Assembly: GCA_022844165.1 (NCBI GenBank)
Contig: JALHMH010000008.1
Coordinates: forward strand, 1-64,000
Reading direction: 5' to 3'
DNA length: 64,000 nucleotides
DNA from: Lysobacterales bacterium
GTDB taxonomy: Bacteria; Pseudomonadota; Gammaproteobacteria; Xanthomonadales; SZUA-5
In this document: positions 4,599-30,406 of the stretch, one piece after another
Numbering within the stretch: position 1 is the first letter of the stretch
Layout: each line of letters starts with the position of its first letter
The notes under the pieces: generated by a model
Seen by the model: the letters and a program-made list of their open reading frames with translations, nothing else
Databases searched by the model: none
What the model was told of the DNA's origin: nothing
Made by a program: the position numbers and the translations under genes

Positions 4599-4617
4599 AA
4601 TAATAAGTCTCATTAGC
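4599..4617 (+). promoter_or_regulatory. Possible Fur box
   Basis: AATAATAAGTCTCATTAGC, about 13/19 match to GATAATGATAATCATTATC, in an AT-rich patch before the exbD remnant. Confidence 0.4.
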
Positions 4618-4634
4618 ATCTGAATCTGAGTGGA

Positions 4635-8487: not shown

Positions 8488-8562
8488 GCCGTTCGCTTAA
8501 TCCGTGCTGATGCATTCTGTCGGTCGTCGTCTTTTTTGATTCACTCGTTCGAGGGCAAATTC

Positions 8563-10767: not shown

Positions 10768-10789
10768 CAGCGCTGAGGAATTGGCCGCT

Positions 10790-11185: not shown

Positions 11186-11277
11186 TGATTGGTTCGAACA
11201 AAGGTGGCGAACTGCACCATCCGTTGAGCATCTCTAGCATCACACTGCTACGTGGGTACTTTATAGCGCCGGAAGTG

Positions 11278-11309
11278 CTCGTGCCCCGTGCCTCGTGCCC
11301 CGTGACCCG
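11278..11309 (-). repeat. Heptamer tandem array (GTGCCCC)x4, right arm of the inverted repeat
   Basis: CTCGTGCCCCGTGCCTCGTGCCCCGTGACCCG; reverse complement matches the left arm at 29/32. Confidence 0.9.
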
Positions 11310-11312
11310 CTC

Positions 11313-14300
11313 ATGAGTACCGCGACGTTTGACCTGCTCCGCAAACGCCTGACTGCAGCTGCCCAGTCGCTACGAGCGAAAGCGGATTCGCTCAACTCCA
11401 AGCGCGTCGAAACCTTTGGCCGAACGGAGTCCAAGTTGCTGGCGCGTCTCTCGGCGCGCACCGAAAACAACTGCGTCGCCCGCGACATCGTTCGCGTAGG
11501 CAATGTGTTGTTGTTCGGCTACTCGGTGACGTTGGGCCTGAAAAAAGAAACCCGCGTCGACGATGTGTTTTGCCTCTACAAGCTCGATAGTGGCGCTGAG
11601 GGCACGGAGTTGACGGCAGTGCCCATGGAAGGCACGTTCCTTTCCGAGCAGCGTTTCGTTGCTGACTTTCGCGAGCTGTATACCTATTACAAGGCCACTG
11701 CGCTCGACCAGTTGCGCGTCGTCGGCGAGAAGCTGCTGCTGATTTTCCGCACTGGCAGCCAGCCCGGCGATAAGCGTGTGTTTCGCTTCGCGATCGAACG
11801 CGGCGGCGCAATCAACTACATCGACAATCGCGGCGAGCGCGATCATGTGCTGCCGGTCCCGCACAGTTTCGAGTGGGTGCCAGTCACGCGCGAACAGCAT
11901 GTGATGGGGCGCTTTCCGCACATCAACATACTCGACACGGTGTTCGTTGAGACCACCGGCGGCGATCTGACGGTCAAAATCGAAAATAACACCGAAACGG
12001 GCCTGGGCATTTTTGCCGAACCCGTCGACGACAAGAATCAGGCATTGGCTGACGCCGACATCGCTTACGCCGATCTGGGCGCGCTGATCGTGCTCAAGAT
12101 CCGTCCGTATCGCGAGAACGTGACACGGCACCTGGTGTTCAATCGGCGCCTCAAACAGGTCGTGCGCATCGACGCGATTGGCGATTCCTGCGTTGAGTTG
12201 CCCGAAGATCATGGCGTCGTTTTCCCAGGTGGGTATTACCTGGAATCGGGTGACACCAAGAACTTTCGCGATCTTGGCCACGATTTTGCTGGCTACCGCC
12301 TGAAGCGCACAGTGCGGGCGCCGAGCGGCGAAGATGTGCTGTATGTGTTCTACGACGAAGCCAGAGGCGACTATGCCTTGCTCGCTTACAATCTGATCGA
12401 TCGTGTGATCGCGCAGCCTTTGTTGGCCAGCGGCTACGCGCGCTTCGACGACGGTCGCATTTTGCTGATCACGCCCGAAGGCGAAGATGCCTCGCGGCTG
12501 CACACAATGCAGTTGTGGCAGACACCATTCGCCTCAGACGAGCATGCCGGCGCGCAACCGAAAGTTGCCGGATTGCTGGGGCGCCTGGGTAACGCGAACG
12601 TCGTCCGCGCCTTGGCGGAACTGCGCGAGCTCAGTCGCCTGGCCGAAGACGCCAACACGCAGGCCTCTTACGATCGCCTGCTGAAACTCGCAGCGCGGTG
12701 CAACGACGCGCATCCTTGGCTGGCGGAATCCGAGGTCGACAAGATCGCCCAGGAAGTGGCGTTGGTCGGACGCAGCGGGCGCGAAGCGCTGGATGCGTTC
12801 GACAAGCTGGAAAAGGCCAAACGCGCGGCGAGCGAGTCATTAGTCGCCGCCACACGGCAGGTCACCGAATTGCTCTCGCGTGTGGCGAGCCTGTTGTGGA
12901 AAACGCCGGACGATTTCACCGATGCAATTCGCTCGCTGAAACGACAGCGCGGCGAGCTGACGGGATTGAAGGAACAGCCGCACATCGATGTGGCGGCAGT
13001 CGGACGCGAGGACGCGCGCGTCACCGACGAATTGACGCGCATTGGCGAACGCGCGCTGAAGTTCTTCTCCGATCCAGCCAGTTTTGCGGCGTTGCGCAAG
13101 GGTTTGAACGAAGCCTCGGCGGCTGTGGACGCGGCAAAAACTACGACCGCTTTGAAACCGGTGGGCGACAAGCTGGATGCGCTGGCGGAGTCGTTGGATG
13201 GTTTGTCGGAACTGATCGCCAGCTTCGAGCAGACCGATGCGCAAGTGCGCGCCTCGCTGCTCGGCCAAACGTCCAATCTGTATGCCGAAGTCAACCGCAT
13301 TCGCGCTGCTGCTCGAGCGCGCCGCGAGGTGTTGCAAGAGCAAGAACAAGGCCTCGAATTCAGCGCGCAGCTGACGGTACTCGAACAATCTCTGACCAAT
13401 CTGCTGGCCAGGTCGGATTCACCCGAGGCGATAGACGAGGCGATGGCGCGCACGCTGGGCACCATCGAGCAACTCGAAGGTCGCTTCGGCGCGCAGCCGC
13501 AGTTTTTGATCGAACTGACCACACGTCGCGAAGCTGCGCTTGAGGCGTTTGCGTCGCGGCGCGATCAGGTCACCGCGCAGCGCGACAAACGCGCACAAGG
13601 ATTGCGCGAGGCCATCACCCGCGTGCTCGATGGCATACCGCGGCGCACCGCCAAGCTGGCGCAAGCGGAAGAGTTGCATGCGTTTTTCGCCGGCGACACG
13701 CTGGTCGAGCGAGCGCAATCGCAGATCAACGAGTTGCGCAGTCTCGGTGCGGCGGTCCAGGCCGACGAGTTAGCTGGACGTTTGCGCAGCCTCAAAGAAT
13801 CCGGTTTGCGCGATTTGCGCGATCGCCTCGAGCTTGGCACAGGAGAATCACTGGCGCTCGGTCGCCACCGCTTTACTATCGAACGACGTCCGCTCGATCT
13901 GGCGCTGCTGCACGACGAGCGCGGGCTGCATTTGCAGCTGACCGGCACCGATTATCGTGTGTCGTTGGCCGAGCCTGGCGCTGAGCAGTTCCAGTCGGTT
14001 TGGGGACAGATGCTGCCGAACGAAACGCCGGACGTGTATCGCGCAGAGTTCTTGGCCTGGCGCGTCTGGCGTCTTGCCAGCGGCGGCGAGCAAGCGGCAC
14101 AAGCAGCACTCAAGGCAGAAAACGCCGAGGCCTTACTGGACTACGTTGCGAGCGTCGCGCAGACGTATCCCGCCGAGGACTATCAGCGCGGCGTGCACGA
14201 CAGCGATGCCGCGAAAATTGTTGCCATGTTGGCTCGCATCGCAGAGCAGGCGGGAGAACTGCGTTGGCCGGCCGCACAGCGCGTGTTGGCGCAAGCGTGG

Positions 14301-16538
14301 TTCGCGACGCTCGATGGCGTGGGGCAGGACGCGGTGAAAGCGCTAGCGAATGGCTTATCGTGGTTCTTGACCAAGGGCGCCATGCCACTGCCACCGTCGT
14401 GGGCCGATGGCCTGGCTGCTGTGGCAAAGGCGCTGGCGCTGCCACACGACCCGGCCAGCCAGGAGGGTGCAGCACGCCATATTGCCGCCAGCCTCGCCAG
14501 CGCCACACATGCTTTTGCGGCCAGTGGTGCGGCACTCGATCTCGCCGACGCGGTTGCGCGCGAGGTGCCGCGGACCGCGCTTGCGGCGCTGGAGGCGCCG
14601 TTGTCACTCGCCGAACGCTGGCAGCTTGCGTCCGCCTGGTGTGCCTCGCTGCAACGCGAGGCTCCGGCATCGGTGGTGTGCGAGGCGGCGGCTATCGTGG
14701 CCTTTCCGCAGCTCCAGCGCGAGCGTGTGAACGTCGAGTTGCATACCGTGATCAAGGAGTTGCGGGGTGAGCATCCGCGCCTCCATCAAGGTGCGCTGAA
14801 GCTGGATTTCGCGGAATTCTTGACGCGCCTGGCGATGCACGAGCAGACGATAGCGCCGGCTTGGCATGGATTTGCTGGGCTGCGCCATGGGCTGAGCGAA
14901 CGCGAGCGCAAACGACTAGGCCTGGATCGTTTCTTCGCCAAGCCGCTCGCGGGTTTCGTGCGTAACCGGCTCATCGACGAGGTCTATCTGCCGCTGATTG
15001 GCAACAATCTGGCCAAACAAATCGGCACGCTCGGCGACAACCGTTCCGATCGTTCCGGGCTGCTGCTGTTGATCTCGCCGCCCGGCTACGGAAAAACGAC
15101 CTTGATGGAATACATCGCCGATCGCCTCGGCATGATTTTCGTCCGCGTGAATGGGCCAACCATCGGCCATGAAACGACCGCGCTCGATCCCGCAAGTGCG
15201 CCACACCGTGGCGCTGCAGATGAGTTGGTGAAGTTGAATCTGGGCCTGGCGATGGGCGTCAACGTGATGCTGTATGTTGACGATATCCAGCACTGTTCCC
15301 CGGAATTCCTGCAGAAGTTTATTTCCCTGGCCGACGGCACTCGCCGCGTCGATGCCGTGATCGATGGCGTTGCGCGCACGATCGATTTGCGCGGCAAACG
15401 ATTTGCACTGGTTATGGCGGGCAATCCGTACACCGAAACGGGCGACGTATTTCGCATTCCGGACATGCTCGCCAACCGCGCCGATGTCTATAACCTGGGC
15501 GATGTTCTGAGTGGTCGCGAAGCGCTGTTCGCGGACAGCTACATCGAAAACGCGCTCACCGCCAACCCGCTCGCTGCACCACTGGCCGAGCGTCCACGTA
15601 ACGACATTTTGAGCGTTTTGCGTATTGCGCGCGGCGACGACGAAACGCCACCGGCTGGATTGCCGGGCGGTTTGGAACTGATCGAACTGGTGAAACGCAT
15701 GGTTGCCGTGCGCGATGTCTTGAGCCGCGTCAATTCGGCCTATGTGGCGAGTGCTGCGCAGGACGATGCCTATCGCACCGAGCCGCCGTTCAAGCTGCAG
15801 GGCAGCTACCGCAACATGGTCAAGCTCACTGCGCAATTGTCGCCGCTGATGACCGAGCAGGAACTGGATTCGCTGATCCGCGATCATTACCGTGGCGAGG
15901 CGCAGACGTTGGGCGCTCGCGCCGAAGAGAATCTGCTGAAGCTCGCGCATTTGATCGGCCAGCCATCGGATGACGAAAAAGCGCGTTGGAGGACTGTGGT
16001 CGATGACTTCCAGCGCCTGATGAAGCAAGGCGGCAAAGACGCAGATGGCGCGACTCGCACCGCGCAAGTGCTTGGCGGGATTGCTCATGCTCTGGACAAG
16101 CAGAATGCACAAACCGCAACCGCCGCCCAGCGCGCCGCCGATGGTCTGGCGAGCATCGCTGCGCAGTTGCAGCAACAACACGCCGGCGCTGGCAGCGCAG
16201 CGCAGTCGTTGGAAAAGGCGATCGAAAAACAGGCAACGGCGATTGCGCAGCAACTGGAGCGGCAAACAGTGCAAGCGGGCAGCAACCGCAAAGCACTCGA
16301 TGCACTGCAAAGCCTGAGTGCGATTCGCGATGCACTGGCACGCGAGCCCAAACTGGACGTGCCCGAATCCCTGGTCGTTGCGCTGGCGCGTATGGCCAAA
16401 GCCTACGAAGATACGCTGGTACCGATCGTCTCCGCGCTGCATCACAAAACCACGCTGGATCACGATATCTGGGAGCAGGTCAGGGCAGTGCGGGCAGAAG
16501 TCGATGCGATGATGAAGCGGATCGGTAGATCGAAGTAG
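11313..16538 (+). CDS. Large coiled-coil AAA+ ATPase (DUF3686, 'DNA repair ATPase', PA3728-like)
   Basis: TENNCVARDIV, Walker A SPPGYGKTT, Walker B LYVDDIQH, RTEPPFKLQGSYRNM. Confidence 0.9.
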   Translation: MSTATFDLLRKRLTAAAQSLRAKADSLNSKRVETFGRTESKLLARLSARTENNCVARDIVRVGNVLLFGYSVTLGLKKETRVDDVFCLYKLDSGAEGTELTAVPMEGTFLSEQRFVADFRELYTYYKATALDQLRVVGEKLLLIFRTGSQPGDKRVFRFAIERGGAINYIDNRGERDHVLPVPHSFEWVPVTREQHVMGRFPHINILDTVFVETTGGDLTVKIENNTETGLGIFAEPVDDKNQALADADIAYADLGALIVLKIRPYRENVTRHLVFNRRLKQVVRIDAIGDSCVELPEDHGVVFPGGYYLESGDTKNFRDLGHDFAGYRLKRTVRAPSGEDVLYVFYDEARGDYALLAYNLIDRVIAQPLLASGYARFDDGRILLITPEGEDASRLHTMQLWQTPFASDEHAGAQPKVAGLLGRLGNANVVRALAELRELSRLAEDANTQASYDRLLKLAARCNDAHPWLAESEVDKIAQEVALVGRSGREALDAFDKLEKAKRAASESLVAATRQVTELLSRVASLLWKTPDDFTDAIRSLKRQRGELTGLKEQPHIDVAAVGREDARVTDELTRIGERALKFFSDPASFAALRKGLNEASAAVDAAKTTTALKPVGDKLDALAESLDGLSELIASFEQTDAQVRASLLGQTSNLYAEVNRIRAAARARREVLQEQEQGLEFSAQLTVLEQSLTNLLARSDSPEAIDEAMARTLGTIEQLEGRFGAQPQFLIELTTRREAALEAFASRRDQVTAQRDKRAQGLREAITRVLDGIPRRTAKLAQAEELHAFFAGDTLVERAQSQINELRSLGAAVQADELAGRLRSLKESGLRDLRDRLELGTGESLALGRHRFTIERRPLDLALLHDERGLHLQLTGTDYRVSLAEPGAEQFQSVWGQMLPNETPDVYRAEFLAWRVWRLASGGEQAAQAALKAENAEALLDYVASVAQTYPAEDYQRGVHDSDAAKIVAMLARIAEQAGELRWPAAQRVLAQAWFATLDGVGQDAVKALANGLSWFLTKGAMPLPPSWADGLAAVAKALALPHDPASQEGAARHIAASLASATHAFAASGAALDLADAVAREVPRTALAALEAPLSLAERWQLASAWCASLQREAPASVVCEAAAIVAFPQLQRERVNVELHTVIKELRGEHPRLHQGALKLDFAEFLTRLAMHEQTIAPAWHGFAGLRHGLSERERKRLGLDRFFAKPLAGFVRNRLIDEVYLPLIGNNLAKQIGTLGDNRSDRSGLLLLISPPGYGKTTLMEYIADRLGMIFVRVNGPTIGHETTALDPASAPHRGAADELVKLNLGLAMGVNVMLYVDDIQHCSPEFLQKFISLADGTRRVDAVIDGVARTIDLRGKRFALVMAGNPYTETGDVFRIPDMLANRADVYNLGDVLSGREALFADSYIENALTANPLAAPLAERPRNDILSVLRIARGDDETPPAGLPGGLELIELVKRMVAVRDVLSRVNSAYVASAAQDDAYRTEPPFKLQGSYRNMVKLTAQLSPLMTEQELDSLIRDHYRGEAQTLGARAEENLLKLAHLIGQPSDDEKARWRTVVDDFQRLMKQGGKDADGATRTAQVLGGIAHALDKQNAQTATAAQRAADGLASIAAQLQQQHAGAGSAAQSLEKAIEKQATAIAQQLERQTVQAGSNRKALDALQSLSAIRDALAREPKLDVPESLVVALARMAKAYEDTLVPIVSALHHKTTLDHDIWEQVRAVRAEVDAMMKRIGRSK

Positions 16539-17070: not shown

Positions 17071-20000
17071 ATGGCGCACATCGATCTCACCTTGCACTGG
17101 CTGGCGATCCCGCTCGACGATGGTCAGCAGTGGGTGCACGCGGCTGGCTTTCCTGAGATCAACCGCATCACTGCTACACGTAAGGGCGGCGAGCGTGCGC
17201 TGGCCAAACGCATCGACGCGCGATTGAGTCGAGAGAACATTGATCACGTGCACTGTCGCATCTGGCCAACGCCGAGTCTGACGACGATCCCGGTCGAAAT
17301 TAAAGCGCCGGCACGGTCTGCCGAGTGGCGCCGACCGGTCACAATCGAGGTGCAGGTTCTGTACGCGCAGCACGGCGCGCAGTGGTTGGCCTTTGCGCCG
17401 GCGCTCGGTATGTCGCTGGCTGCCGAATCCGAAGAGAAACTGCGCGAGACCGTCGTTCAGCAGGCCCATGTTCGCCTCGGCAAACTTGAGCGGGCGCGTT
17501 TGCGCGAGTTGGCGCAAGTCGATCGCTTTCGCGGCGCGACCCTGACTTCAAGCTCCGAGCCGTTCGAGTTGCCATCCGCAAAAGCGAGAGCGGCGCGCCG
17601 CGAGCAGATCGATACCTCGGTGCTGGCGGAGGTTGCCGATCCCTTTCCGTCGCTGCGCGCAATCGCGCTGGACGCGACCGTGCTGCGGCTTGCAGAGGCG
17701 CTGAGCGGCGACATGGCGCATTCGGTGTTGCTCGTCGGTCCGCCGGGTTGCGGCAAGACGTCGGCCGTCGCCGAACTGGCGCGACGGCATCCGGCCCTGG
17801 GCCTTAAGCAGACCGATGGCGCACGCCTGATCGCCGGGCAGAGTGGCTACGGGCAGTGGCAGCAGCGTTTGCGCGAACTGGTGCGCGAGCTCGCGAAGGC
17901 CAAGTCGATTCTGCATCTGGGTCAGCTGACTGAGCTCATGGAGGTTGGACGCTGCCGTGCCGGCGAGCAGTCGATGGCGGGCTTCCTGCGTGGCGACATC
18001 GCGCGCGGCACGCTGCGCGCGATCGCCGAATGTACGCAGGAACAATTGGCAGCGATTGAGCGCGATGAGCCGGGTCTGATCGCCGCCTTCCAAACCGTGA
18101 CGATGCAGGCGCCGGATGTCGCTACCACGCGTGAGATCCTGCAAGCTGAGGCGCGTGCGCTGCACATTGATATGGACGCGGCGCAGATCGGGTGGATCGA
18201 ACGTTTGCATCGCCGCTACGCGGGCTATTCGGCGCGACCGGCGCGTGCCATCGAGTTCTTGCGCGATCTGGGGCAAAGCGGTGTGCAGTCGTCGCTGCCA
18301 TCGATCACGCAGGCTTTCTCACAGCAAACGGGATTGCCCGCCTGGCTACTGGATGAGTCTCAACGTTTCGATCGCGATGGCGCCGAGCGTTTTTTCTCGA
18401 CGCGAGTCCTGGGGCAAACCGCCGCCATCAAGACCGTCTTGGCACGCGTCGCCGAAATCAAAGCCGATCTGCATCGTGGTGGGCGACCGCTCGGAAGTTT
18501 TTTGCTGATCGGGCCCACCGGCACCGGCAAGACTGAGCTGGCAAAAACGCTGGCTGCATTCCTCTTCGGCAGCGGCGATCGGCTGACGCGCTTCGATCTC
18601 TCGCAAGCCACTGATCCGCTATCCGTGCAGCGTCTGATTGGCAGCAGCGCCTATGGGGCGCCAGAAGGCTTGCTCACCGCGCGCGTTCGCGAGCAGCCGT
18701 TTTGTGTGCTGCTGCTCGATGAGTTCGAGAAGGCGCACCCGAGTTTTTTTGATCTGCTGCTGCAAATGTTGGGTGACGGCCGTCTCACCGATGGCAGCGG
18801 GCGCGTCGCCGATCTGTCGAATGCCGTGGTGCTGCTGACATCCAACTTGGGCGCGAACGATGCGCAGCGCGCCGCGATGGGATTCGCCGCGCGCCAGAGC
18901 GGTGGCGAATACGAGGCGGCAGTGAAGCGCTTTGTCCGCCCCGAGCTGTACAACCGCTTCGATGCGATCGTCCCGTTCGCGCCGCTCGATCGAACGCAGT
19001 GCCGAGCCATTGCGGCGCGCGAAGTGCAACGCGCGCTGGCGCGCGACGGTCTGCGTCAGCGCGGCATCGAGCCGCAGTTGCCCGCCGATACGATCGAGCG
19101 GCTCGCGGACGTTGGATTCGATGCCGCGTTCGGCGCGCGTGCGCTGAAGCGCCACATCGAGCGCGAATTGGTGGTGCCGCTGAGCGAATCGCTCGCAGCA
19201 AATCCACTTGCAAGCCAGTTGATTCTGGTCGATCGGCGCATCCGTGCGTCGACGACCACTCGGCCAGCGAGCTCCGGCGCGGCCGTCGCAAACGCCGCGC
19301 GCGATCTGCGCCAACGCTGCGCGCGCATACAAAATTGCAGTGAACTTCAAGCATTGATCGATGAAGCCGAAATGCTCAAGCTCGCAGCGAAGCGATTGTC
19401 GCGTCGTCATCTGAAACCGCTGCCGACGGCAGTCGCGCGCCTGAAACTTCTGAGCGAGTTGCAGACCGATGCACAGGCGTTATTGAATGCGGCCTGCCTG
19501 CACGAGGACGCAGCCCTGGCGGGTTTGTGGGACCGAGAAGTTGGGCCGTCGCCGGCGCCGAATCAACTCACGCAAGAGCTGCTCGCGCTCAAGCGCCGCA
19601 TCCTGGCCGCGGCTTATCGAGATCCGCATCGTATCGAGCTGTTGCTGGTTGCGGACGTGCATGGCTGGCTCTGCGAGTTGCTGGCCGCCTATCGCAGCCT
19701 GAAGGTCAAGCTGCGGGTCGCACAGATTGTCGAGCGCCACGGGACGGAGTTACGGGTGCGCGCGTTGGATGAGGTGCCCTACAAGGCGACCGTTCTGGAT
19801 CAGCCGCCGCCCGTGGTGATCGGCCTGACGTTCGTCGTCGAAGGCGATCTTTGCGCCGCGCTGTTTTCTGGTGAAGTCGGAATCCACCTTTGGCGCCCGG
19901 CGCGCGAGGTGGGCGGTCCGCGATTGGCGATGCTGCGCGCGACCAGCGCTACGGAAGAAATCGATCTGACGCAGCTGCGTGATGTGACTGAGTGCGGATT

Positions 20001-20163
20001 GCCGCGAGTGCGTGAGTTCGATCACGACAAGGCGGAGGTGCGCGAAGGCAAGTGGCGGCGACTGTGGGACACGATGGCACCGCGGTATACAGTCGCCGAG
20101 CGCATGCGCGATCGGCTGCAGCTGGCCATCGACCGTATTGGCGCCAGCGAGGCCGCGCCGTGA
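17071..20163 (+). CDS. ClpA/ClpB-like double AAA+ ATPase with extended C-terminal domain (paralogue 1)
   Basis: GPPGCGKTS; GPTGTGKTE, LLLDEFEKAH, LGDGRLTD, RPELYNRFD, FGARALKR. Confidence 0.88.
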   Translation: MAHIDLTLHWLAIPLDDGQQWVHAAGFPEINRITATRKGGERALAKRIDARLSRENIDHVHCRIWPTPSLTTIPVEIKAPARSAEWRRPVTIEVQVLYAQHGAQWLAFAPALGMSLAAESEEKLRETVVQQAHVRLGKLERARLRELAQVDRFRGATLTSSSEPFELPSAKARAARREQIDTSVLAEVADPFPSLRAIALDATVLRLAEALSGDMAHSVLLVGPPGCGKTSAVAELARRHPALGLKQTDGARLIAGQSGYGQWQQRLRELVRELAKAKSILHLGQLTELMEVGRCRAGEQSMAGFLRGDIARGTLRAIAECTQEQLAAIERDEPGLIAAFQTVTMQAPDVATTREILQAEARALHIDMDAAQIGWIERLHRRYAGYSARPARAIEFLRDLGQSGVQSSLPSITQAFSQQTGLPAWLLDESQRFDRDGAERFFSTRVLGQTAAIKTVLARVAEIKADLHRGGRPLGSFLLIGPTGTGKTELAKTLAAFLFGSGDRLTRFDLSQATDPLSVQRLIGSSAYGAPEGLLTARVREQPFCVLLLDEFEKAHPSFFDLLLQMLGDGRLTDGSGRVADLSNAVVLLTSNLGANDAQRAAMGFAARQSGGEYEAAVKRFVRPELYNRFDAIVPFAPLDRTQCRAIAAREVQRALARDGLRQRGIEPQLPADTIERLADVGFDAAFGARALKRHIERELVVPLSESLAANPLASQLILVDRRIRASTTTRPASSGAAVANAARDLRQRCARIQNCSELQALIDEAEMLKLAAKRLSRRHLKPLPTAVARLKLLSELQTDAQALLNAACLHEDAALAGLWDREVGPSPAPNQLTQELLALKRRILAAAYRDPHRIELLLVADVHGWLCELLAAYRSLKVKLRVAQIVERHGTELRVRALDEVPYKATVLDQPPPVVIGLTFVVEGDLCAALFSGEVGIHLWRPAREVGGPRLAMLRATSATEEIDLTQLRDVTECGLPRVREFDHDKAEVREGKWRRLWDTMAPRYTVAERMRDRLQLAIDRIGASEAAP

Positions 20164-23100
20164 AGACCATTGTGCCGATCTACATCGAGATGCGGCCGGA
20201 TGGTGTGCACGTCCAGGCCTTGTTCGATAACGCCGTGACCATGTCCGGCGCGACGCTCGATTCGGCACTGCAGTCGTTCCAGGTGCAATTGCTGAAGCAT
20301 TTGCACTCGCTGGCGGTCGAAGCGGACCAACGTGAGTTGACTGCCTGGTTGTCGACGCCGACGTTCACGTTTGAGGTACTCAATGTGCGCGTCCGCCATG
20401 AGGGGCAACAGCACGCCGGGCAATCGTTGCTGGTTCGCTATGAGGCGCTTGGACGCACGCTCGCTTTTACCCCAACCTGGCCCAAGCGGCATTTCGAACT
20501 GGGTGGCGACGAGCCGATCGCGGAGCGCGTAGGCCAGGTGTTCAGTGCCTGGCTCAAGGAGCGCGAGTCGCCGCCGCAACCGGATCAGCTGCTACGGCCT
20601 GAGCGATTGCGTGCGCGGGTGCGCACACTGGAGCTGGATTGGCAACCGGTAGGTGCGCGAAAGATCGAGCCTGGGCGCGATGCCGCGGCACTCGGCGGCA
20701 ATGACGAAGAGTTCGATGGTGGCACCGAGCTGGCCAAAGTGGGCAGCGCGATGCACTCGCGCGAACGCGCGATCGAACGCGAGACCGAGGTGGCAGCACT
20801 GGGCTCGCGCCTGGAGCGCAAAGAAAAGCGCGCAGTACTGCTGGTTGGACAAAGCGGGGTAGGCAAAACATGTTTGCTCCACGAATGGTTGGCCGTACGC
20901 TCGAACGACGCAAAAGCCGCGCGCGTCTGGCACATCGCACCGCAGCGCGTGATCAGCGGTATGAGCTATCTGGGCCAATGGGAGGCGCGCTGGCTGGCGA
21001 TGCTGCGTTTTGCTGCGGCCGAAAATGTGGTGCTGTATTTCGACGACTTGCTGGGCCTTTTCAGCGCCGGCTTGAGCTCGGGAAGCACGCTCAACATGGG
21101 CGATATGCTGCTGCCCTGGATGACCGCCCATCGCGTTCGCGTGCTCGGCGAAATCACGCCCGAGGCCTGGCGCGTACTGCGCGAGCGGCGTCGCGCCTTT
21201 GCCGATCAGTTTTTTGTGATCAACGTCGCGCCGCCGCCACCCGCGGCAACCTGGCGCATCGTGTCGAATTTGCTCCGTGAGTTGGAGCGACGCTTCGATG
21301 TTCGCTACGAGCTCGACTCGATTCCGACGGCACTGGCGTTGGCGGATCGTTACTTTGCGCAGCGCGCATTTCCAGGACGCATTGCCGATGTGTTGCGGAC
21401 GCTGAGCGCGCGTTCGGTGGGCGTGTCTTTGACCCGAGCGGCGGTCATTGCCGAGTTCGTGCGTCGTACCGGTAGCGCCGCGAACATCGTCGATCTCGAT
21501 CGACCGCTGACGCGCAGCGAAATCCAGAGCGCACTGCAGGCGCATCTCAAGGGTCAGCCTCAAGCGATCTCGGCGTTAGGCGATGTGCTGCTGCGGGCCA
21601 AAGCAGGGCTCAACGACCCAGATCGGCCATTGGCGACGATGCTGCTGCTCGGCCCCACCGGGGTTGGCAAAACCGCATGCGCCAAAGCACTTGCCACATA
21701 TTTGGGCGGCGCGAGCGCGTTGATCCGTATCGATCTCAACGAGTACGCCGAACTCGGCGATGCCGCGCGGTTGGTCGGCACGTTCGCCGCGCCCGATGGT
21801 GTGCTGACTGCCGCGATTCGTCGCCAGCCGAACAGCGTGGTCTTGCTCGACGAGATCGAAAAGGCGGCGCCGGATGTGTTCGATGTGCTGCTGTCGCTGC
21901 TCGACGAGGGCCGGCTCACCGATGCCCACGGTCGCGTGGCGCATTTCCAGCAGGCGGTGATTGTGATGACATCGAACCTCGGCGCGCGCGAGGCCAGCCG
22001 GCAACTCGGGTTCGTCAACACAACGCACAGCGGCGCGACCTATGAAGAAGCTGCGCGGCGCTTTTTCCGGCCAGAGTTTTTCAATCGCATCGACTACGTG
22101 CTGCCGTTTTCGCCGCTGGGCGACGTTGAGTTGCGGGCGATCACCGAGCAGACGATTGCTGCCGCTTTGGCGCGCAGCGGAATTCGTACGCGCGAGTGTC
22201 TGATCGACATCGATCCGGCAGCCATCGATGCGCTGATGGCGATCGGTCGCGATGCGGCGCTCGGCGCACGTGCGCTAAAGCGCGGCATTGAGCGTGCCTT
22301 GGTGCAGCCACTGGCGCGCGCGCTGGCCGCCAGTCGTTTCGAAGTGCCGACACGTGTGCAGCTGGCAGTGAAACATGGCGAGCTGGTGCTCGAAGCCGCG
22401 CCGATCCACTTTGCGCAGCGCAGTGAGTGTGGAGAGGCGCGTGATGACGATCTGGATGAGCGCGAAGAGCTGGGTCGCATCGGCGAGCGGCTCGCACAGA
22501 TCGATGCTGCGCTCGACGAGCACCCTGGCCGTGGCGGCATCACCCTGGATGGCATCGATACCAGGCAAACGCACTACGCGGTATGCCGCGAACAACTGCG
22601 GGTCGTTGCCGAACTCTTCGAGCGTGCGACACGACCGCAGCCACGCGGTGGGGCAAAACGACTGCCGCGAGTACGCGATCACTTGCAGACGTATGTACGC
22701 AATGAAACAAGCAAATCCGTGCAAAACGCGCGCGCCGATCTGGCACGCCACGAAATGGCATGGCTCGACGAGGCAAACGCGGCGCCGCTACCCAAGCTGT
22801 CCGGATTGCGTCGCGAACTGGCATGGCTCGAAGCGTTACTGGCGGCACCTGAGCCATCCAGCCAGCGCCTTCGGGTACGCGCATTGAGCGCGCGCGAACA
22901 AGTCGAAGCGGAGGCGATTGCCGGCGCGTTGGCTGCCGCTTTGGCGCGGCTTATCGGGTGCCAGGAAGCTCACGCTGTGAATAGCGAGTTGAGCGTCGCT
23001 GGTTTTGCGCTTGCGCCGTTGTTGGCGGCAGAAACCGGATATTGGTTACGCCGCGACGAGGGCTTGGCGCTAATCGAAGTGAGCGGCGAGACGTCGGCCG

Positions 23101-23225
23101 CCACACACATCATCCGCGTCAGCCGCGGCCGCCGGCATGTGGACGTACGCCATGGCCTGGAAATCGAGGGACTCGACGATGCCGAATCGCTGCGGCGTTT
23201 TTTGCTGCAGGGGCTATTGCGATGA
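20160..23225 (+). CDS. ClpA/ClpB-like double AAA+ ATPase with extended C-terminal domain (paralogue 2)
   Basis: GTGA overlap; GQSGVGKT, LYFDD; GPTGVGKT, LLDEIEKA, DEGRLTD, RPEFFNRID, LGARALKR. Confidence 0.88.
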   Translation: MKTIVPIYIEMRPDGVHVQALFDNAVTMSGATLDSALQSFQVQLLKHLHSLAVEADQRELTAWLSTPTFTFEVLNVRVRHEGQQHAGQSLLVRYEALGRTLAFTPTWPKRHFELGGDEPIAERVGQVFSAWLKERESPPQPDQLLRPERLRARVRTLELDWQPVGARKIEPGRDAAALGGNDEEFDGGTELAKVGSAMHSRERAIERETEVAALGSRLERKEKRAVLLVGQSGVGKTCLLHEWLAVRSNDAKAARVWHIAPQRVISGMSYLGQWEARWLAMLRFAAAENVVLYFDDLLGLFSAGLSSGSTLNMGDMLLPWMTAHRVRVLGEITPEAWRVLRERRRAFADQFFVINVAPPPPAATWRIVSNLLRELERRFDVRYELDSIPTALALADRYFAQRAFPGRIADVLRTLSARSVGVSLTRAAVIAEFVRRTGSAANIVDLDRPLTRSEIQSALQAHLKGQPQAISALGDVLLRAKAGLNDPDRPLATMLLLGPTGVGKTACAKALATYLGGASALIRIDLNEYAELGDAARLVGTFAAPDGVLTAAIRRQPNSVVLLDEIEKAAPDVFDVLLSLLDEGRLTDAHGRVAHFQQAVIVMTSNLGAREASRQLGFVNTTHSGATYEEAARRFFRPEFFNRIDYVLPFSPLGDVELRAITEQTIAAALARSGIRTRECLIDIDPAAIDALMAIGRDAALGARALKRGIERALVQPLARALAASRFEVPTRVQLAVKHGELVLEAAPIHFAQRSECGEARDDDLDEREELGRIGERLAQIDAALDEHPGRGGITLDGIDTRQTHYAVCREQLRVVAELFERATRPQPRGGAKRLPRVRDHLQTYVRNETSKSVQNARADLARHEMAWLDEANAAPLPKLSGLRRELAWLEALLAAPEPSSQRLRVRALSAREQVEAEAIAGALAAALARLIGCQEAHAVNSELSVAGFALAPLLAAETGYWLRRDEGLALIEVSGETSAATHIIRVSRGRRHVDVRHGLEIEGLDDAESLRRFLLQGLLR

Positions 23226-25450
23226 GCGCGCGTACGCCGATCTTGCAATGGCGCGATCCACAAGGCGGCTGGCATGGTGTGTTATTGGGCGACGATCTGT
23301 ACGCGAACGCCTGGGCAAGCGACAAGCGCGATCTGCACAACGAGCTGCGAGAATTGCATGCATGGATTGCGGCGAACGCTTCGTGGCGCCTCAACGAGCA
23401 TGACGAAGCTGAGCTGATTTGGGTCAAGATCGAAGCGCGTGCTCGTTTCAGGCTGCGCGAGCGCATCTTTCCCGTTGACCCACTGCCGCTGCGCATTCCC
23501 TGTGTGCGCGCGTCGGATGATCGGGATCAGCTTTGGTGTTTGCAGCCGCAACTCTATTTGCGCTTCGATATCGATCGCGGTGCCGAGTTCAAAGCATTGG
23601 CCAAACACTACGCGCAGGAAGCGTTGCGCGATGCCGATCCTATGCAGCTGGCGCTGATGCTGCCGCCCGACGACTGCACGATCGAATGGTTGAGCGCACC
23701 GCTACGCGAGCGGCGCAGCTCGACAAGAATCGAGGATCACCCGCGGCTGAAGGTGCTGTTCGAGTGCGCCGAACCGGCGCTCAAAGATCGTCGCCTTCTT
23801 GGCGCGGCGCTTGGTCGCGAACGCGAGGCGGTGGCTCTGGCGGAGCGCTTGGCGGCCAAGCGTGGCAATGTGCTCCTTGTTGGCCCTCGCGGTGTTGGCA
23901 AGACCACACTGCTGCTCGACGCCGTGCGCCGCTGGCTGCGCGTCCAGGATGGCGACACAGATCTCAAAGACTATCGAATGTGGCGCATCAGCGGTGCGCG
24001 TATCGTCGCCGGCATGCTGTACCTCGGGCAATGGCAAGAGCGCTGCGAAGCGCTGGTGTCTGCCATGGGATTCGCACGAGGCTTCCTGGCGGTCGAGAGC
24101 CTGGCCGAGCTGACCCAGGTGGGCGGACAAAACCCGGAGAGCAGCGTTGCTGCCTTTCTCGCGCCGTTCCTCGCACGCGGTGAGTTGCGGCTGGTGGCTG
24201 AGGCCACCGCCGATGAGTTCGATGCATGCCGTCGATTGCTGTCGGGATTCGTCGATCAATTCGAAGTAGTGCGTGTCGAAGGCTTCGTCGGCGCGGCCGC
24301 ACAAACGCTGATGCGCGATATCGCGCGCACGCTCGGCAGCAGCGGCCGTGGCGCGCTCGATGCGGGCGTGGCCGACGTGGTGTTGGCGTTACACCAGCGT
24401 TTCCAACCAGGCGCCTGTGTCCCCGGCCCGGCCGTGCGGCTACTGCGAGAACTGGCACTCAAGGTCCGCCGCGAACCGGTAGGCGTGGATAGCGCGATAG
24501 CGGCATTCGCAGCGCGCAGCGGCTTGCCACAAGCCTTGTTGCGCGATGACGTGCTGCTGCGCTTCGAAGACGTACGCGACGCACTCTCGAGCAAAGTCAT
24601 CGGCCAACCGCAGGCGATTGCGGCCGCCGCTCAGTGCATCGTGACGCTGAAGGCGGGGCTCAACGATCCGGGTCGCCCGGTTGCTGTGCTGTTGCTGACG
24701 GGCCCGACGGGCACCGGCAAGACGGCATTGGCGCGAGCGCTAGCTGCGTATTGTTTCGGCGATGCGCAAGAACGTTTGCTGCGCCTGGACATGAGCGAGT
24801 ACGCGGGTTTCGATGCCTTAGCGCGTCTGGTCGGTGGTGAGGATGGGCGCGCGCCGCGTTGGCTGCAAAGCATCGAACGCCAGCCGTTCTCGGTGATACT
24901 TTTCGACGAAATCGAAAAAGCCGCGCCAGAAGTCTTCGATGCATTACTTGGTCTGCTCGATGAGGGCCGCATCAGCGATCGCTTCGGCCGCGGCTACGAT
25001 TTCACCAGCGCGATCATCGTGCTGACGTCGAACCTGGGCGCGAGCGCCAGTGCCACGATCGGTTTCGCGGCGTCGGCACAAGACGGTTTCGATCACGCCG
25101 CGCGTACTTTTTTCCGGCCAGAGTTCTACAACCGGCTCGACGCCGTGATCAGCTACGGCCAACTCGATCGAAACAGCATGCGCGCGATCGCCCGCAAGGA
25201 GCTTGAAGACCTGAGCCGGCGCGATGGCCTGGTCGAGCGGGGTTTGTCGCTCGTCTGGGACGAGGAGATCGTCGAGTACCTGGCGAGTGTCGGCTTTGAC
25301 CCGCAATACGGCGCCCGGCCGCTACAGCGGGCCTTGGATGCGCATATCGTGAGTGCCATTGCTATCTGGCGTCTGGCACATCCGGAGGTGCGCGATGTTG
25401 CGTTGCGCATCGCACTTGTGGAGGGCGATCCCTACATCGCTGTCGTATAG
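23222..25450 (+). CDS. ClpA/ClpB-like double AAA+ ATPase (paralogue 3, no C-terminal extension)
   Basis: ATGA overlap; GPRGVGKT; GPTGTGKT, LFDEIEKA, RPEFYNRLD, YGARPLQR. Confidence 0.88.
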   Translation: MSARTPILQWRDPQGGWHGVLLGDDLYANAWASDKRDLHNELRELHAWIAANASWRLNEHDEAELIWVKIEARARFRLRERIFPVDPLPLRIPCVRASDDRDQLWCLQPQLYLRFDIDRGAEFKALAKHYAQEALRDADPMQLALMLPPDDCTIEWLSAPLRERRSSTRIEDHPRLKVLFECAEPALKDRRLLGAALGREREAVALAERLAAKRGNVLLVGPRGVGKTTLLLDAVRRWLRVQDGDTDLKDYRMWRISGARIVAGMLYLGQWQERCEALVSAMGFARGFLAVESLAELTQVGGQNPESSVAAFLAPFLARGELRLVAEATADEFDACRRLLSGFVDQFEVVRVEGFVGAAAQTLMRDIARTLGSSGRGALDAGVADVVLALHQRFQPGACVPGPAVRLLRELALKVRREPVGVDSAIAAFAARSGLPQALLRDDVLLRFEDVRDALSSKVIGQPQAIAAAAQCIVTLKAGLNDPGRPVAVLLLTGPTGTGKTALARALAAYCFGDAQERLLRLDMSEYAGFDALARLVGGEDGRAPRWLQSIERQPFSVILFDEIEKAAPEVFDALLGLLDEGRISDRFGRGYDFTSAIIVLTSNLGASASATIGFAASAQDGFDHAARTFFRPEFYNRLDAVISYGQLDRNSMRAIARKELEDLSRRDGLVERGLSLVWDEEIVEYLASVGFDPQYGARPLQRALDAHIVSAIAIWRLAHPEVRDVALRIALVEGDPYIAVV

Positions 25451-27154: not shown

Positions 27155-27727
27155 ATGGACGAAAAGCACTTTGCGGAATCACTGCGTGCGTGGGCCAATG
27201 GCGATGGCGATGCCGGCGATGCGCTGTATGCCATGGCTTACGACGAACTCAAGACGGTGGCGCGGCGCAGTCTTCGTTCCTACGGCCGTGGCGATCAATT
27301 GAGCACAACCATGCTCGTCAACGAGTGCTATCTGAAGCTTGCGCGTGGCGGCGTATTGGGTCCGGAGACGCAGCAACACTTCATGGCGCTGTGCGCACGG
27401 GCGATGCGTCAGATCATCGTCGATTCGGCGCGGCGCCAGCTTAGCGAAAAGCGCGATGCGGCGGCGTTGGATGAAGACGATTTTGCCGCCTTGCGGCCCG
27501 AGTCCGCGATGCATCTCTCGCCGGAGGCGATCGCTTCGCTCGACCAGGCGCTGCATGATCTGGATCGTCGCGACCCGCGCCTGGCGCGCATCGCCGAATG
27601 CCGCATTTTCAGCGGTATGGAGTGCGCCGATATCGCGGCGGTGATGAATGTCACCGAACGCACCGTTCAGCGCGAGTGGCAACGCGTCAAGGCACTCCTG
27701 GCGCTGGTGCTGGAAAATCGCGAATGA
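27155..27727 (+). CDS. ECF sigma factor, TIGR02999/ECF43-like
   Basis: YDELKTVARR, LSTTMLVNECYLKL, AMRQIIVDSARR, VTERTVQREW. Confidence 0.92.
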   Translation: MDEKHFAESLRAWANGDGDAGDALYAMAYDELKTVARRSLRSYGRGDQLSTTMLVNECYLKLARGGVLGPETQQHFMALCARAMRQIIVDSARRQLSEKRDAAALDEDDFAALRPESAMHLSPEAIASLDQALHDLDRRDPRLARIAECRIFSGMECADIAAVMNVTERTVQREWQRVKALLALVLENRE

Positions 27728-27748
27728 GGCCCACAGGCAACCAACGCG

Positions 27749-30406
27749 CTATAGCTGCTTCAGCAAGGCGATAAGGCGAGCGCGGTCCGCAGATTCCAGT
27801 ACCGCCGGGATGGCGTCGATATGCGGCTTTGGCGAGAGCCGTTGCAGCAAGGGCGAACGCAACTCGCGAGTCGAGGCAGTTCCGGGAGGGGCGTCCCAGG
27901 TCAGGCCCAGCGCCTCCATTTGCATCGCGCTCTGCGCCGGACAATCGCTGGGCACACGCTTCTGCGGCTGCGATTCGCCCCGCAGTGCTGCGCGCAGCGC
28001 TACGTATTCCGCACGATCGCATTCATAGGTCTTGCGCGCATCGAACGCAGGGTCGGGACGATCGGGTAACGTCCCAAGTTCACCCAACAGTTGCAGCGTC
28101 AGATCGGCCTGTTCGTGCACTGGGTTGCGTTTCAGTGCAGTACGCGCAACGGTTTCCGCCAGTGCCGGTTCATTGAACTCGTACAGCGCCCAGGCGAGTG
28201 GTCCAAGATAATCGGCGAGGCGCGGCGAATCGCGACCAAGAACCCCAAGAACCGTCTCCAGACTGGTCAGCAGCGTTGGGAAAACGTCGTGATTGGCGCC
28301 GATACTCAGTGCCACGCGGGATCTGATCAGCAGGAGATGCGCGCGAGCCTGCGGATCGAGATTCTCCAGTCGCTTCTGATCGACGCCCTGCAACAACTCC
28401 AACGCGCGATGGTTCTGGGCGGAAAAGACCAACATGATGGCAGCGTTGATCACCGTTTGCGTGGGGCGAGGGTGATCCGATCCGAGTCTCTTCTGTGTTT
28501 CGCCGATCAAACTCAACAATTGCTCCGCCGCCTGATCGGGTCGCCCGGCGTTGCCCAACGCGGTCGCAACATTACCGCGATGGTTGAACCAGCGTTGCGA
28601 TTGGCGCGGATCGTTGCGATCGATCAGAGTTTCAGCTTCCGCATAAACCTTCAGTGCCGCATCGGCATCGCCAGTCCTTTGCAGCAGGATGGCGCGTTCG
28701 GCGAGTACGTCGTAGCGAAAGCGCGGCTCGGCGCGATTCAGGTCGATGGCGTCCAATTCCCGCAGCGCCGCATCGAACTCGGCGCGATCGCTCAGGATGC
28801 GCGCTCGCGCCAGGACCAAGGTGTCAGGCGGCGGCTTGTCGTAGGTTCGGGTGAAGTTGGCGATCGCGTCCAATGCGGCGTCTTGCTCGCCGCTTCGTGC
28901 GAGTGCCTGAATCTGCTCCGCGGCGACCGGCGCTCGCTGGTCGGCGGGCGCAAGTTCCAGGGCGCGCGTCCACAGCGCCAGCGCCTTGCTGTAATTTTGC
29001 AGGGTTCCCTGCAGCTGCGCCAGGCGCTGCAGAATTTGCCGATGAAATTCGCGGTCGGCCGGCGTGGTGGTCAGAAAGTCGTCGCTGGCGGCATCCACCA
29101 CGGCGCTGACGGTGACGCTGCCCGGTTGATGCAGATAGGGGTCGGCAGGTTCCAACATCTGGGTCATTGTCTGCAGCACGCGGTCGATACGCAAAGCGTG
29201 TTCTGCCTGTTGTTGCGCCAGGCGCAAGGCCGACACACCAGCGACAACAACGATGCCGACCACAGCTGCCGTCACAGCGACACCCAGGCGACGGCGCTTG
29301 ACGAAGCGCGCGAGGCGATAGCTCGCCGTTGCGCGGCGCGCGCGAACCGGCAGCGCGGCGCGGAAACGCTGAAGATCGTCGCCGAGCTCAGCGGCCGAGC
29401 GATATCGATCGCTGGGATCGAACTGCAAACACTTCAGTACGATCGCATCGATGTCGCCCCGCAGCAGACGTTGCTGAGCGCCATCCACGACGGACTCGCT
29501 CGGTGCAATCAACCGCGTATCGGCATGCAAGCGCTCGGAGGGCCACGCCGCATCGGCATCTGCATAAGGCCAACGTGCAGTCAGTAGATGGAACATCAGC
29601 AAACCCAGTTGGTAGACATCGCTCGCCACACCAACCGGTCGTCCCAGAAGTTGTTCCGGAGACGCGTAGCGCAAGGTCATCGGCGCAGCGCCGGTGCGCG
29701 TTTTGTCCGCTCGCAAATCCAGGGTGTCATCGAGCACTTTCGCGATGCCGAAGTCGATCAGTTTCGGTTCGCCATGCGCCATCAGCACATTGCTCGGTTT
29801 GATATCGCGATGGATGACCAGATGCTGGTGGGCCAGACTCAGTGCATCGCATAAACGGAGGATCGCGGAAACGATGCGAGGAAAGTCCTCGCGGTTCGGA
29901 TTGAGCGCGAGATCGATAGGCACGCCATCGATACGTTCGAGCACCATATAGGCGCGTTCGTCGGCGACCCCGACGTCCAGTAACGTGGCGATGTTCGGAT
30001 GTTTGAGGCGCGCCAGAATATGTTGCTCGTTGAGAAAGCGCGCGCGGTCGATGGCGCCAGGTAACCACTGACGCAGTACCTTGATCGCGACCGGCTGCTC
30101 AGAACCGCTGACGAGTCTCACGCCGCCGTAGACGATGGCCATTCCACCTCGCCCGAGCTCGCCTTCGATGCGGTAGCCAGCGATATGCGGCGCGGGTAGT
30201 TCTTCCGCTACCCGGTGCAAATGTGAGCCGGCCTGCTTGAGGCTGAGCGTGTCCGCTTCAACGACCATGCGCAGCAGTTTTCGCAGGCTTTCGGCCATCG
30301 TTGGGTCTGTGGCTTCGATCTGCGCCAGGTACTCACGGCGCGATTCCAGCGGCAGATTCATCAGCATTTCAAGTTGCGCATCGAGTGCGGCGATGTCGCG
30401 CGCCAT
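27749..30406 (-). CDS. Membrane Hanks-type Ser/Thr kinase with TPR-like extracytoplasmic region
   Basis: LGRGGMAIVY, VAIKVL, HRDIKPSN, DFGIAK, YASPEQ, SDVYQLG, TM helix, TPR-like helices. Confidence 0.93.
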   Translation of the reverse strand: MARDIAALDAQLEMLMNLPLESRREYLAQIEATDPTMAESLRKLLRMVVEADTLSLKQAGSHLHRVAEELPAPHIAGYRIEGELGRGGMAIVYGGVRLVSGSEQPVAIKVLRQWLPGAIDRARFLNEQHILARLKHPNIATLLDVGVADERAYMVLERIDGVPIDLALNPNREDFPRIVSAILRLCDALSLAHQHLVIHRDIKPSNVLMAHGEPKLIDFGIAKVLDDTLDLRADKTRTGAAPMTLRYASPEQLLGRPVGVASDVYQLGLLMFHLLTARWPYADADAAWPSERLHADTRLIAPSESVVDGAQQRLLRGDIDAIVLKCLQFDPSDRYRSAAELGDDLQRFRAALPVRARRATASYRLARFVKRRRLGVAVTAAVVGIVVVAGVSALRLAQQQAEHALRIDRVLQTMTQMLEPADPYLHQPGSVTVSAVVDAASDDFLTTTPADREFHRQILQRLAQLQGTLQNYSKALALWTRALELAPADQRAPVAAEQIQALARSGEQDAALDAIANFTRTYDKPPPDTLVLARARILSDRAEFDAALRELDAIDLNRAEPRFRYDVLAERAILLQRTGDADAALKVYAEAETLIDRNDPRQSQRWFNHRGNVATALGNAGRPDQAAEQLLSLIGETQKRLGSDHPRPTQTVINAAIMLVFSAQNHRALELLQGVDQKRLENLDPQARAHLLLIRSRVALSIGANHDVFPTLLTSLETVLGVLGRDSPRLADYLGPLAWALYEFNEPALAETVARTALKRNPVHEQADLTLQLLGELGTLPDRPDPAFDARKTYECDRAEYVALRAALRGESQPQKRVPSDCPAQSAMQMEALGLTWDAPPGTASTRELRSPLLQRLSPKPHIDAIPAVLESADRARLIALLKQL

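Follow-up and report, generated by a model that had tools for sequence, protein, structure and literature searches.

The window analysed here is a stretch of 64,000 nucleotides from a Lysobacterales bacterium (assembly GCA_022844165.1, contig JALHMH010000008.1, positions 1–64,000, forward strand). It carries three consecutive genes on the + strand that encode paralogous Clp/Hsp100-type ATPases, referred to as P1 (17071–20163, 1030 aa), P2 (20160–23225, 1021 aa) and P3 (23222–25450, 742 aa). All three were assigned from their open reading frames (ORFs), translations and Pfam matches. P2 and P3 share 30% and 35% identity with P1, respectively. The GTG start codon of P2 shares bases with the stop codon of P1 (GTGA), and the ATG start codon of P3 with the stop codon of P2 (ATGA), which suggests translational coupling of the three genes. 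P3 stops right after the small domain of its second AAA+ module (D2-small), whereas P1 and P2 extend by a further ~300 residues. These C-terminal tails, which P3 lacks, are homologous to bacterial class-I release factors (RFs) but have diverged from them, keeping RF domain 1 and domain 2/4.

A sequence-only reading of this DNA had claimed, by eye, that two of the three Clp paralogues end in RF1/RF2-like domains arranged in RF order, and had raised the possibility of a ribosome A-site- or RNA-binding module serving in ribosome rescue, quality control or conflict. The span to which it pointed, 19560–23225, takes in all of P2 and the final ~200 residues of P1, and the five strings it quoted are all located in the translations. 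In P1, they are IELLLVADVHGWLCELLAAY (residues 855–874, window 19633–19692), LTFVVEGDLCAALFSGEVGIHLWR (residues 919–942, window 19825–19896) and RVREFDHDKAEVRE (residues 979–992, window 20005–20046). In P2, they are LSVAGFALAPLLAAETGYWLR (residues 944–964, window 22989–23051) and IIRVSRGRRHVDVRHGL (residues 984–1000, window 23109–23159).

We compared a profile of 115 P1-type tails with an RF alignment of 31 sequences, which were collected from loci found in a PCRF search (two from the genome of the window, the remaining 29 from a further 40 genomes in the phylum). By hhalign, the local alignment reached a score of 46.7 (probability 85.3%, E value (E) 5.9e-6), and the end-to-end alignment a probability of 96.6% (E 7.1e-10). 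The alignment is colinear, placing residues 34–307 of the P1 tail on RF residues 1–362, and leaves RF residues ~214–293, which contain the catalytic GGQ, unmatched. IELLLVADVHGWLCELLAAY and LTFVVEGDLCAALFSGEVGIHLWR each pair with the matching RF stretch and RVREF pairs with RIRTY, so that the P1 motifs fall on exactly the RF motifs that had been named for them by eye, RMY, E-x-G-x-H-R and IRTY. As controls, all 20 of 20 column shuffles scored 10.6–15.6 (E 0.27–0.83), and reversed RF profiles scored 20.4, 15.9 and 8.1. Judged from these profiles, the resemblance of the P1 tail to RFs is more than chance. The signal resides in the α/β part, which by itself gives a probability of 82.8% (E 9.3e-6); the helical part by itself shows no sequence signal against RFs in hhalign (E 0.25).

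Conservation within the family falls on the same positions. In an alignment of 107 P1-type tails (A8, beginning at the GARALKR anchor), the near-invariant RF-like residues are E935 (107/107), G937 (106), H939 (103), R981 (103) and Y874 (102). E935, G937 and H939 pair with the E-x-G-x-H motif of RFs, R981 with IRTY, and Y874 with RMY.

The P2 tail is more diverged. Its sequence set contains 18 members, P2 orthologues of distant operons included, and its profile matches that of the P1 tail over the E-x-G motif region (probability 52%, E 1.4e-4). Shallow profile comparisons of the tails gave E values of 0.033 and 0.28, and BLASTP detects no likeness between the P1 and P2 tails (E 1.1). In Pfam at E≤10, the P1 tail matches no family, and the P2 tail matches just FliL (E 0.051), TetR_C_38 (E 0.095) and ABC_tran_CTD (E 4.1).

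The structure of the P1 tail was predicted with confidence. The AlphaFold2 model was built from window 19120–20160 and 106 relatives (107 sequences in total; model residue i corresponds to P1 residue 683+i), with a predicted local distance difference test score (pLDDT) of 86.5 and a predicted template modelling score (pTM) of 0.79. The model consists of a helical bundle (residues 735–847, window 19273–19611, +; model helices 52–164) and an α/β domain with a C-terminal helix (residues 848–1030, window 19612–20160, +). In VIA-align (VIA), the bundle superposes on RF domain 1; the α/β domain resembles RF domain 2/4 in both hhalign and VIA, with no domain 3 insert. Foldseek against the PDB returned 36 matches at E≤0.001, the best being 4.7e-7. 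The matches listed within the first 38 ranks are all RF1, RF2 or mtRF1, and the first non-RF appears at rank 40 with a probability of 0.15. Meanwhile, VIA ranks 1–41 are RFs with Z scores of 10.7–14.0. The α/β domain alone (model ~165–346) superposes on RF1 ~104–358 with a root-mean-square deviation (rmsd) of 3.1–3.9 Å over 138–152 residues (Z 12–12.7); for example, model 165–342 aligns with residues 104–354 of RF1 in 2b3t_B (Z 12.6, rmsd 3.1 Å over 140 aa). RF domain 1 is present as well, since the whole-chain VIA alignments begin at model residues 53–55 against RF2 residues 4–6. We notice that helical bundles give middling Z scores with many unrelated chains; the best unrelated VIA match, a designed three-helix bundle (Z 9.7), is confined to the helical part. 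In a Foldseek-independent search of 48,161 representative chains, the top four were RF2, RF1, mtRF1 and RF1 (Z 13.3–11.9), below which the only matches lying within the α/β domain are to PrfH.

The P2 tail was modeled from its 18 sequences (model residue i corresponds to P2 residue 701+i), with a pLDDT of 85.5 and a pTM of 0.77. A helical region (residues 764–895, window 22449–22844, +; model helices 63–194), partly aligned to RF domain 1, precedes an α/β domain (residues 900–1021, window 22857–23222, +) that resembles RF domain 2/4 without domain 3, as seen in VIA and in the wide search. Foldseek ranks 1–31 are all RFs (E 4.2e-4 to 0.056), and VIA ranks 1–39 are RFs with Z scores of 10.2–12.5. 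The best unrelated VIA match is the DnaK lid (Z 8.5). Alignments of the α/β domain alone show an rmsd of 2.4–2.9 Å over 114–122 residues, such as 5mdw_7 (Z 12.5, rmsd 2.4 Å over 117 aa, model 187–320 against RF2 118–363). RF domain 1 is again included, with VIA alignments beginning at model residues 57–60 against RF residues 5–8; in 1gqe, model 60–320 aligns with RF2 8–363 over 221 aa (Z 12.2). The top four of the 48,161 chains were mtRF1, RF1, RF1 and RF2.

Together with the weaker sequence match of P2, these structure searches show that both tails are RF-like and that P2 is the more diverged. For P2, where the sequence signal is weak, the predicted fold settles the matter, as RFs come first in Foldseek, VIA and the wide search. 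The claim that RF-like domains stand in RF order on two of the three paralogues thus stands on the structural matches of both models and on the colinear hhalign alignment, and the domain 2/4 fold proposed for them is borne out in Foldseek. The coiled coil that had been described ahead of the motifs is indeed helical, but it is not a generic coiled coil, as it superposes on RF domain 1 in the models.

The catalytic domain is missing from the tails, as had been suspected from the sequence. No GGQ occurs in the P1 and P2 tails, the corresponding RF segment is left unmatched in hhalign, and a profile (hidden Markov model, HMM) of RF domain 3 found nothing in ~170 family proteins and all long ORFs of their loci (best E 0.41). 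Among 150 relatives, eight do have a tail containing a GGQ tripeptide; in three of these it immediately precedes RRxY, at the position of RF GSGDRSERIRTY, and does not lie in a domain 3.

We next describe the ATPase part that carries the tails. In P1, an N-domain of no known family (residues 1 to ~200, +) is followed by the first AAA+ module, D1 (Walker A GPPGCGKT), and by D2 plus D2-small (residues ~440–715), where Pfam locates AAA_2 at 472–633 (E 2.2e-38) and ClpB_D2-small at 639–713. The corresponding matches in P2 span 489–645 and 657–733. Across P1, P2 and P3, the E values are 2e-38, 2e-39 and 5e-35 for AAA_2 and 2e-9, 1e-8 and 8e-14 for ClpB_D2-small, and the proteins thus show the two-AAA+ feature of class-1 Clp/Hsp100 ATPases. 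An N-terminal domain of ~200 aa is common to P1, P2, P3 and the family consensus (17071–17670, 20160–20800 and 23222–23800) and replaces Clp_N. No Pfam family matches the first ~200 residues of P1 and P2 at E≤10, the sole match to those of P3 is weak and unrelated (CUB domain, E 0.071), and the P1 N-domain has no usable match in the ESM Atlas.

All three paralogues score far below the NCBIfam cut-offs for ClpA, ClpB, ClpV, ClpK and ClpG. The ClpA model TIGR02639, though below its cut-off, aligns P1 214–707 in one stretch, and the ClpB models align in two; the gap between D1 and D2 is ~95 residues. ClpB/Hsp104 disaggregases have a coiled-coil middle domain within D1, which the three paralogues, in this respect ClpA-like, probably lack. 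In the PDB, the best sequence matches of the Clp part are of the ClpA/ClpC/ClpE/ClpB type (E 1e-60 to 1e-88). The pore-loop region of P1 D1, AGQSGYGQWQQR, aligns to AGAKYRGEFEER of Hsp104, with an aromatic residue at or next to the pore-loop position as in class-1 Clp. On the other hand, ILHLGQLT of P1 D1 (window 17900–17930) stands where Hsp104 has the Walker B sequence IVFIDEIH, and P1 D1 therefore lacks the Walker B acidic pair; this column is also altered in P2 (YFDDL) and P3 (AVESL). Such a D1 in P1 may bind ATP without hydrolysis. In D2, the Walker A and the DE pair are intact in all three proteins.

Clp ATPases that partner with ClpP (ClpA/ClpC/ClpE/ClpX) have a [LIV]-G-[FL] tripeptide loop in their last AAA+ module; in ClpA, IGL forms this ClpP-docking loop. 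The best PDB match for the corresponding segment of P1 is the ClpB/ClpA chimera 5ofo, whose ClpA-derived IGL stands opposite MGF of P1 in an ungapped alignment, and the same column reads LGF in P2 and IGF in P3. With a hydrophobic-Gly-Phe tripeptide at this position in all three paralogues, hand-over to ClpP may be possible. P1, P2 and P3 resemble ClpA, ClpC, ClpE and ClpB in the two AAA+ modules, AAA_2 and D2-small, and have [MLI]GF at the ClpA IGL position; they differ from them in the family-specific N-domain that replaces Clp_N and in the C-terminal RF-like tail, which is new. They form a self-contained, probably translationally coupled set of ClpA-like double-ring AAA+ ATPases.

Some distant orthologues deviate from this layout. 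In P2 orthologues at loci L043, L045, L046, L048 and L059, the first match to a simple Walker A pattern lies in D2 rather than D1, and the D1 P-loop of P2 may have been lost in some lineages. In several of these, an insert of ~40 residues also separates the E-x-G-x-H and VVR-x-Y strands of the tail. Some P3 orthologues are far longer than the P3 of the window (stop-to-stop frames L046 9584–12505, 974 aa, and L054 12794–15847, 1018 aa) and may carry a tail of their own; the one at L054 gives a weak in-register match to the RF HMM (E 1.9).

The fusion is widespread. An exhaustive HMMER search of 1.84 billion representatives with a full-length P1-type profile (1033 positions) recovered 150 relatives, mostly of 1040–1270 aa, many of which match from position 1 to 940–1027. 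A tail-only HMM matches 117 of the 150 (114 at E<1e-6), in Verrucomicrobiota, Planctomycetota, Acidobacteriota, Bacteroidota, Myxococcota and other phyla. Word-index homologue searches had returned only 5, 6 and 9 clusters, giving a false impression of rarity. In public records, the proteins are named 'hypothetical protein' or 'ATP-dependent Clp protease ATP-binding subunit ClpA'.

A D1-region alignment searched against 185,579 species genomes found at least 78 loci. Among the matches listed, the tail-only HMM identifies a P1-type tail in at least 17 ORFs at 16 loci from several phyla, and the order P1-P2-P3 recurs in at least eight distant loci, including a Prosthecobacter metagenome-assembled genome (MAG), a Verrucomicrobiales MAG, a Planctomycetota MAG, Archangium gephyra, two Acidobacteriota MAGs and two delta/proteobacterial MAGs. 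The same order is found in genomes G004 and G015, and a short contig of G017 shows a P2 tail followed by P3. In Saprospiraceae-type Bacteroidota and some others, a P1-like gene stands alone. Among genomes near that of the window the tails are patchy, with the P1 tail in 4 of 59 and the P2 tail in 5 of 59; at the level of the class, the P1 tail was found in 2 of 401 sampled genomes, one of the matches being weak and partial.

Among the loci checked, the only conserved neighbours of the Clp genes are the Clp genes themselves. The exceptions, in a Pfam survey of 94 flanking ORFs at 15 loci, are Ser/Thr kinases in four loci and a subtilase downstream in three related ones. The kinase genes lie within ~5 kb at L049, L050, L054 and L056. 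In the window, a gene for an extracytoplasmic function (ECF) sigma factor adjoins a Ser/Thr kinase-TPR gene at 27155–30406, 2–5 kb past P3, and a similar ECF sigma/kinase pair (L123 12905–16020) is present in G004, ~12 kb from the triple. The proximity of kinases could be chance in kinase-rich genomes. In Saprospiraceae-type loci, the lone P1-like gene is directly followed by an S8 subtilase gene (L051 12608–14041, L052 12573–14009 and L053 12617–14038), and a shikimate kinase gene precedes it in L051 and L053. The subtilase was rejected as a partner: the L051 copy has a signal-peptide-like N-terminus, and the arrangement is probably synteny only. At L056, a gene for an 'FtsH ternary system domain X6' protein (PF20004, E 2e-40; 3939–5255, −) lies just upstream of the Clp triple.

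Upstream of P1, a set of genes on the + strand (7268–16538) comprises two small ORFs that match no family, a protein of 743 aa that weakly matches flotillin, and a 1747-aa DUF3686 (E 3e-176)/DUF7902/AAA protein. The DUF3686, flotillin-like, small-ORF and GFA genes were considered as partners and rejected, for they do not lie beside the triple in G001 (same genus), G004 or G015, nor in 21 distant loci. Being absent beside the triple in these relatives, the upstream set is an independent unit. A literature search found nothing on DUF3686. Further upstream, on the − strand (289–4368), are genes for a TnsA-like endonuclease (3622–4368) and for a protein of 763 aa that bears a helicase C-terminal domain (289–2580), a region that may be part of a mobile island.

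RF1/RF2 and mtRF1/mtRF1a have the same parts as the tails in the same order, namely domain 1, the domain 2/4 superdomain and a C-terminal helix; RF1/RF2 and mtRF1 are the best structural matches for both tails, and RF1/RF2 have the E-x-G-x-H, R-x-Y (IRTY) and RMY-type residues in common with them. In contrast to RF1/RF2, the tails have no domain 3 or GGQ, and in contrast to free-standing RFs, they are fused behind a ~730-aa Clp ATPase and lie below detection by Pfam PCRF. PrfH (RF-H), an RF paralogue, acts with RtcB to rescue ribosomes damaged by ribotoxins. Like the tails, PrfH is a sporadic, diverged RF paralogue with an altered recognition domain, and it matches the P1 α/β domain structurally with Z scores of 8.5–9.1. 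The tails, however, are the reverse of PrfH in that they keep domain 1 and lose the hydrolase, and RtcB is not among the neighbours of their genes in the Pfam survey of the 15 loci. According to the accessible text of PMC6514570, the bacterial hydrolase domain was inserted in the codon-recognition domain, and architectures containing the hydrolase are catalogued there. The same text describes Vms1 as a release-factor-family protein working with the AAA+ chaperone Cdc48, and Dom34 as a paralogue of release factors that acts on stalled ribosomes and no longer has the catalytic glutamine. The comparison with the eukaryotic/archaeal Vms1/Cdc48 and Dom34/Pelota concerns the way of working only; their superfamily, aeRF1, is structurally unrelated, they are separate proteins rather than fusions, and we claim no homology.

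The characterised relatives with this superdomain that were matched, namely RF1, RF2, mtRF1 and PrfH, were all solved on the ribosome, as stated in the PDB entry titles. Since these relatives act there and the RF layout and signature residues are kept across phyla, the simplest reading is that docking at the A site has been kept. By analogy, we put at about even chances that the RF-derived tail docks at the ribosomal A site and factor-binding side, tethering the hexameric unfoldase to ribosomes. The tail would occupy the A site and factor-binding region like the scaffold of RF1, RF2 and PrfH, and the helical arm behind the D2 ring would tether the hexamer, perhaps a mixed P1/P2/P3 ring. The target would be ribosomes whose A site is free or abnormal. 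The motor could then pull on a protein located there, for instance a ribosomal protein or a factor that is trapped, or assist in dismantling the ribosome. The tail itself would neither release nascent peptides nor read stop codons.

Known bacterial factors of ribosome rescue and quality control act by peptidyl-tRNA hydrolysis (RF2 with ArfA, ArfB, PrfH) or after subunit splitting. To our knowledge, none of the bacterial rescue factors joins an A-site-type module directly to an AAA+ unfoldase. We speculate, with the odds somewhat short of even, that the proteins are ribosome-directed unfoldases, in which a GGQ-less RF module plugs the A site and recruits the Clp motor, perhaps along with ClpP, to ribosomes that are stalled, damaged or in surplus. 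As a second strand of the same tentative proposal, the uninterrupted domain 2/4 could preserve a form of the codon-recognition domain that predates the insertion of the hydrolase.

Several observations weigh against ribosome-directed unfoldases with RF-derived tails, on the side of both the homology and the function. By sequence alone, the P2 tail is not significantly matched to RFs (E 0.044), although the register is right. The Pfam families PCRF and RF-1 are absent from both tails at E≤10, a six-frame search of the whole genome with PF03462 (PCRF) at E≤10 returned two ordinary RF genes only, and the tail-only HMMs found no RF among PDB sequences, each giving one unrelated match (E 0.98 and 2.5). 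The expectation that a PCRF profile search would recognise the tails therefore failed for the Pfam HMM, but it held for profile-profile comparison once a deep P1-tail alignment was used. The tail domains are not basic, with net charges of −1 and −3, the domain 2/4 of the genome's own RF1 also being −3. No ribosome-related neighbour is conserved among the 94 flanking ORFs at the 15 loci. The ClpP-type tripeptide is conserved in part, [LIVMF]G[FL] being present in 78 and xGF in 119 of 146 family members. In RFs, stop codons are recognised by the PxT/SPF loop and the tip of helix 5. In the hhalign alignment, the loop bearing PxT/SPF is five residues shorter in P1 than in RFs, the region of the helix-5 tip, GTGGDE, is shortened as well, and the columns at P1 942–943, equivalent to the stop-codon loop, are gapped in 58–61 of 107 relatives. 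As these elements are not kept, the tails are not stop-codon readers; they are related to RFs but, functionally, do not belong to the RF1/RF2 family.

The main rival is that the RF-derived tails were exapted away from the ribosome, as a platform for substrates or adaptors or as a domain for regulating or assembling the Clp ring, the fold then being only a scaffold. The shortened, unconserved decoding loops and the lack of conserved ribosome-related neighbours fit this explanation, as do a P3 that works without a tail and a P2 tail far more diverged than that of P1, which is expected when the original constraint is relaxed. However, the full three-part RF layout of helical domain 1, domain 2/4 and C-terminal helix persists in order, the five signature residues are near-invariant in 107 diverse tails, pointing to a retained RF-like constraint, and RF1, RF2, mtRF1 and PrfH were all solved bound to the ribosome. 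We regard exaptation as rather unlikely. The resemblance itself might also be due to chance or convergence, with an unrelated coiled coil next to a small α/β domain. Standard family HMMs are blind to the tails, the helical part alone has no sequence signal, and helical bundles score middling Z values with many unrelated chains. Against this, the profile-profile score is well above the shuffled and reversed controls, the motifs are colinear across ~270 residues, the α/β domain is recognised alone in hhalign (82.8%) and superposes with an rmsd of 2.4–3.9 Å over 114–152 aa, and RFs take the top four places among 48,161 chains for two independently built models. A coincidence of this kind appears extremely improbable.

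The genes might instead form an anti-phage or anti-toxin conflict system, in which the tails act as sensors or decoys for effectors that target ribosomes or RFs and the unfoldase removes or destroys these effectors. This reading is compatible with ribosome targeting. It would account for the patchy occurrence among related genomes (4/59 and 5/59) and in the class (2/401), and for neighbours that vary even inside the genus. The TnsA-like gene and the giant DUF3686 ATPase near the triple, the Ser/Thr kinase genes that lie up to ~5 kb away in the window and at 4 of 15 other loci, and the FtsH-ternary-system domain gene in one locus are in line with it. PrfH offers a precedent of an RF paralogue serving in conflicts, as far as the accessible text of PMC9304027 and PMC6514570 goes. 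On the other side, in PADLOC the D2 module drew generic AAA+ matches and nothing else (PDC-M37B, DolB, IetA), no effector-type domain is conserved as a neighbour in the Pfam survey of the 15 loci, and the lone-gene Saprospiraceae-type forms sit among housekeeping genes such as that of shikimate kinase. A conflict system seems improbable to us.

We found no description of an RF-like domain on a Clp ATPase in full-text literature searches; the accessible text of PMC6514570 does not contain 'Clp', and its supplementary lists could hold such architectures. We rate the architecture as new for both the RF superfamily and the Clp ATPases. If ribosome-directed unfolding is its function, the system would parallel, in bacteria, the logic of the Vms1-Cdc48 and Dom34-type pathways. 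With the fusion being widespread, it offers a concrete candidate for ATP-driven extraction or dismantling at the bacterial ribosome. For the RF superfamily, a domain 1 joined to an uninterrupted recognition domain without a hydrolase bears on how the three-domain RF was assembled.

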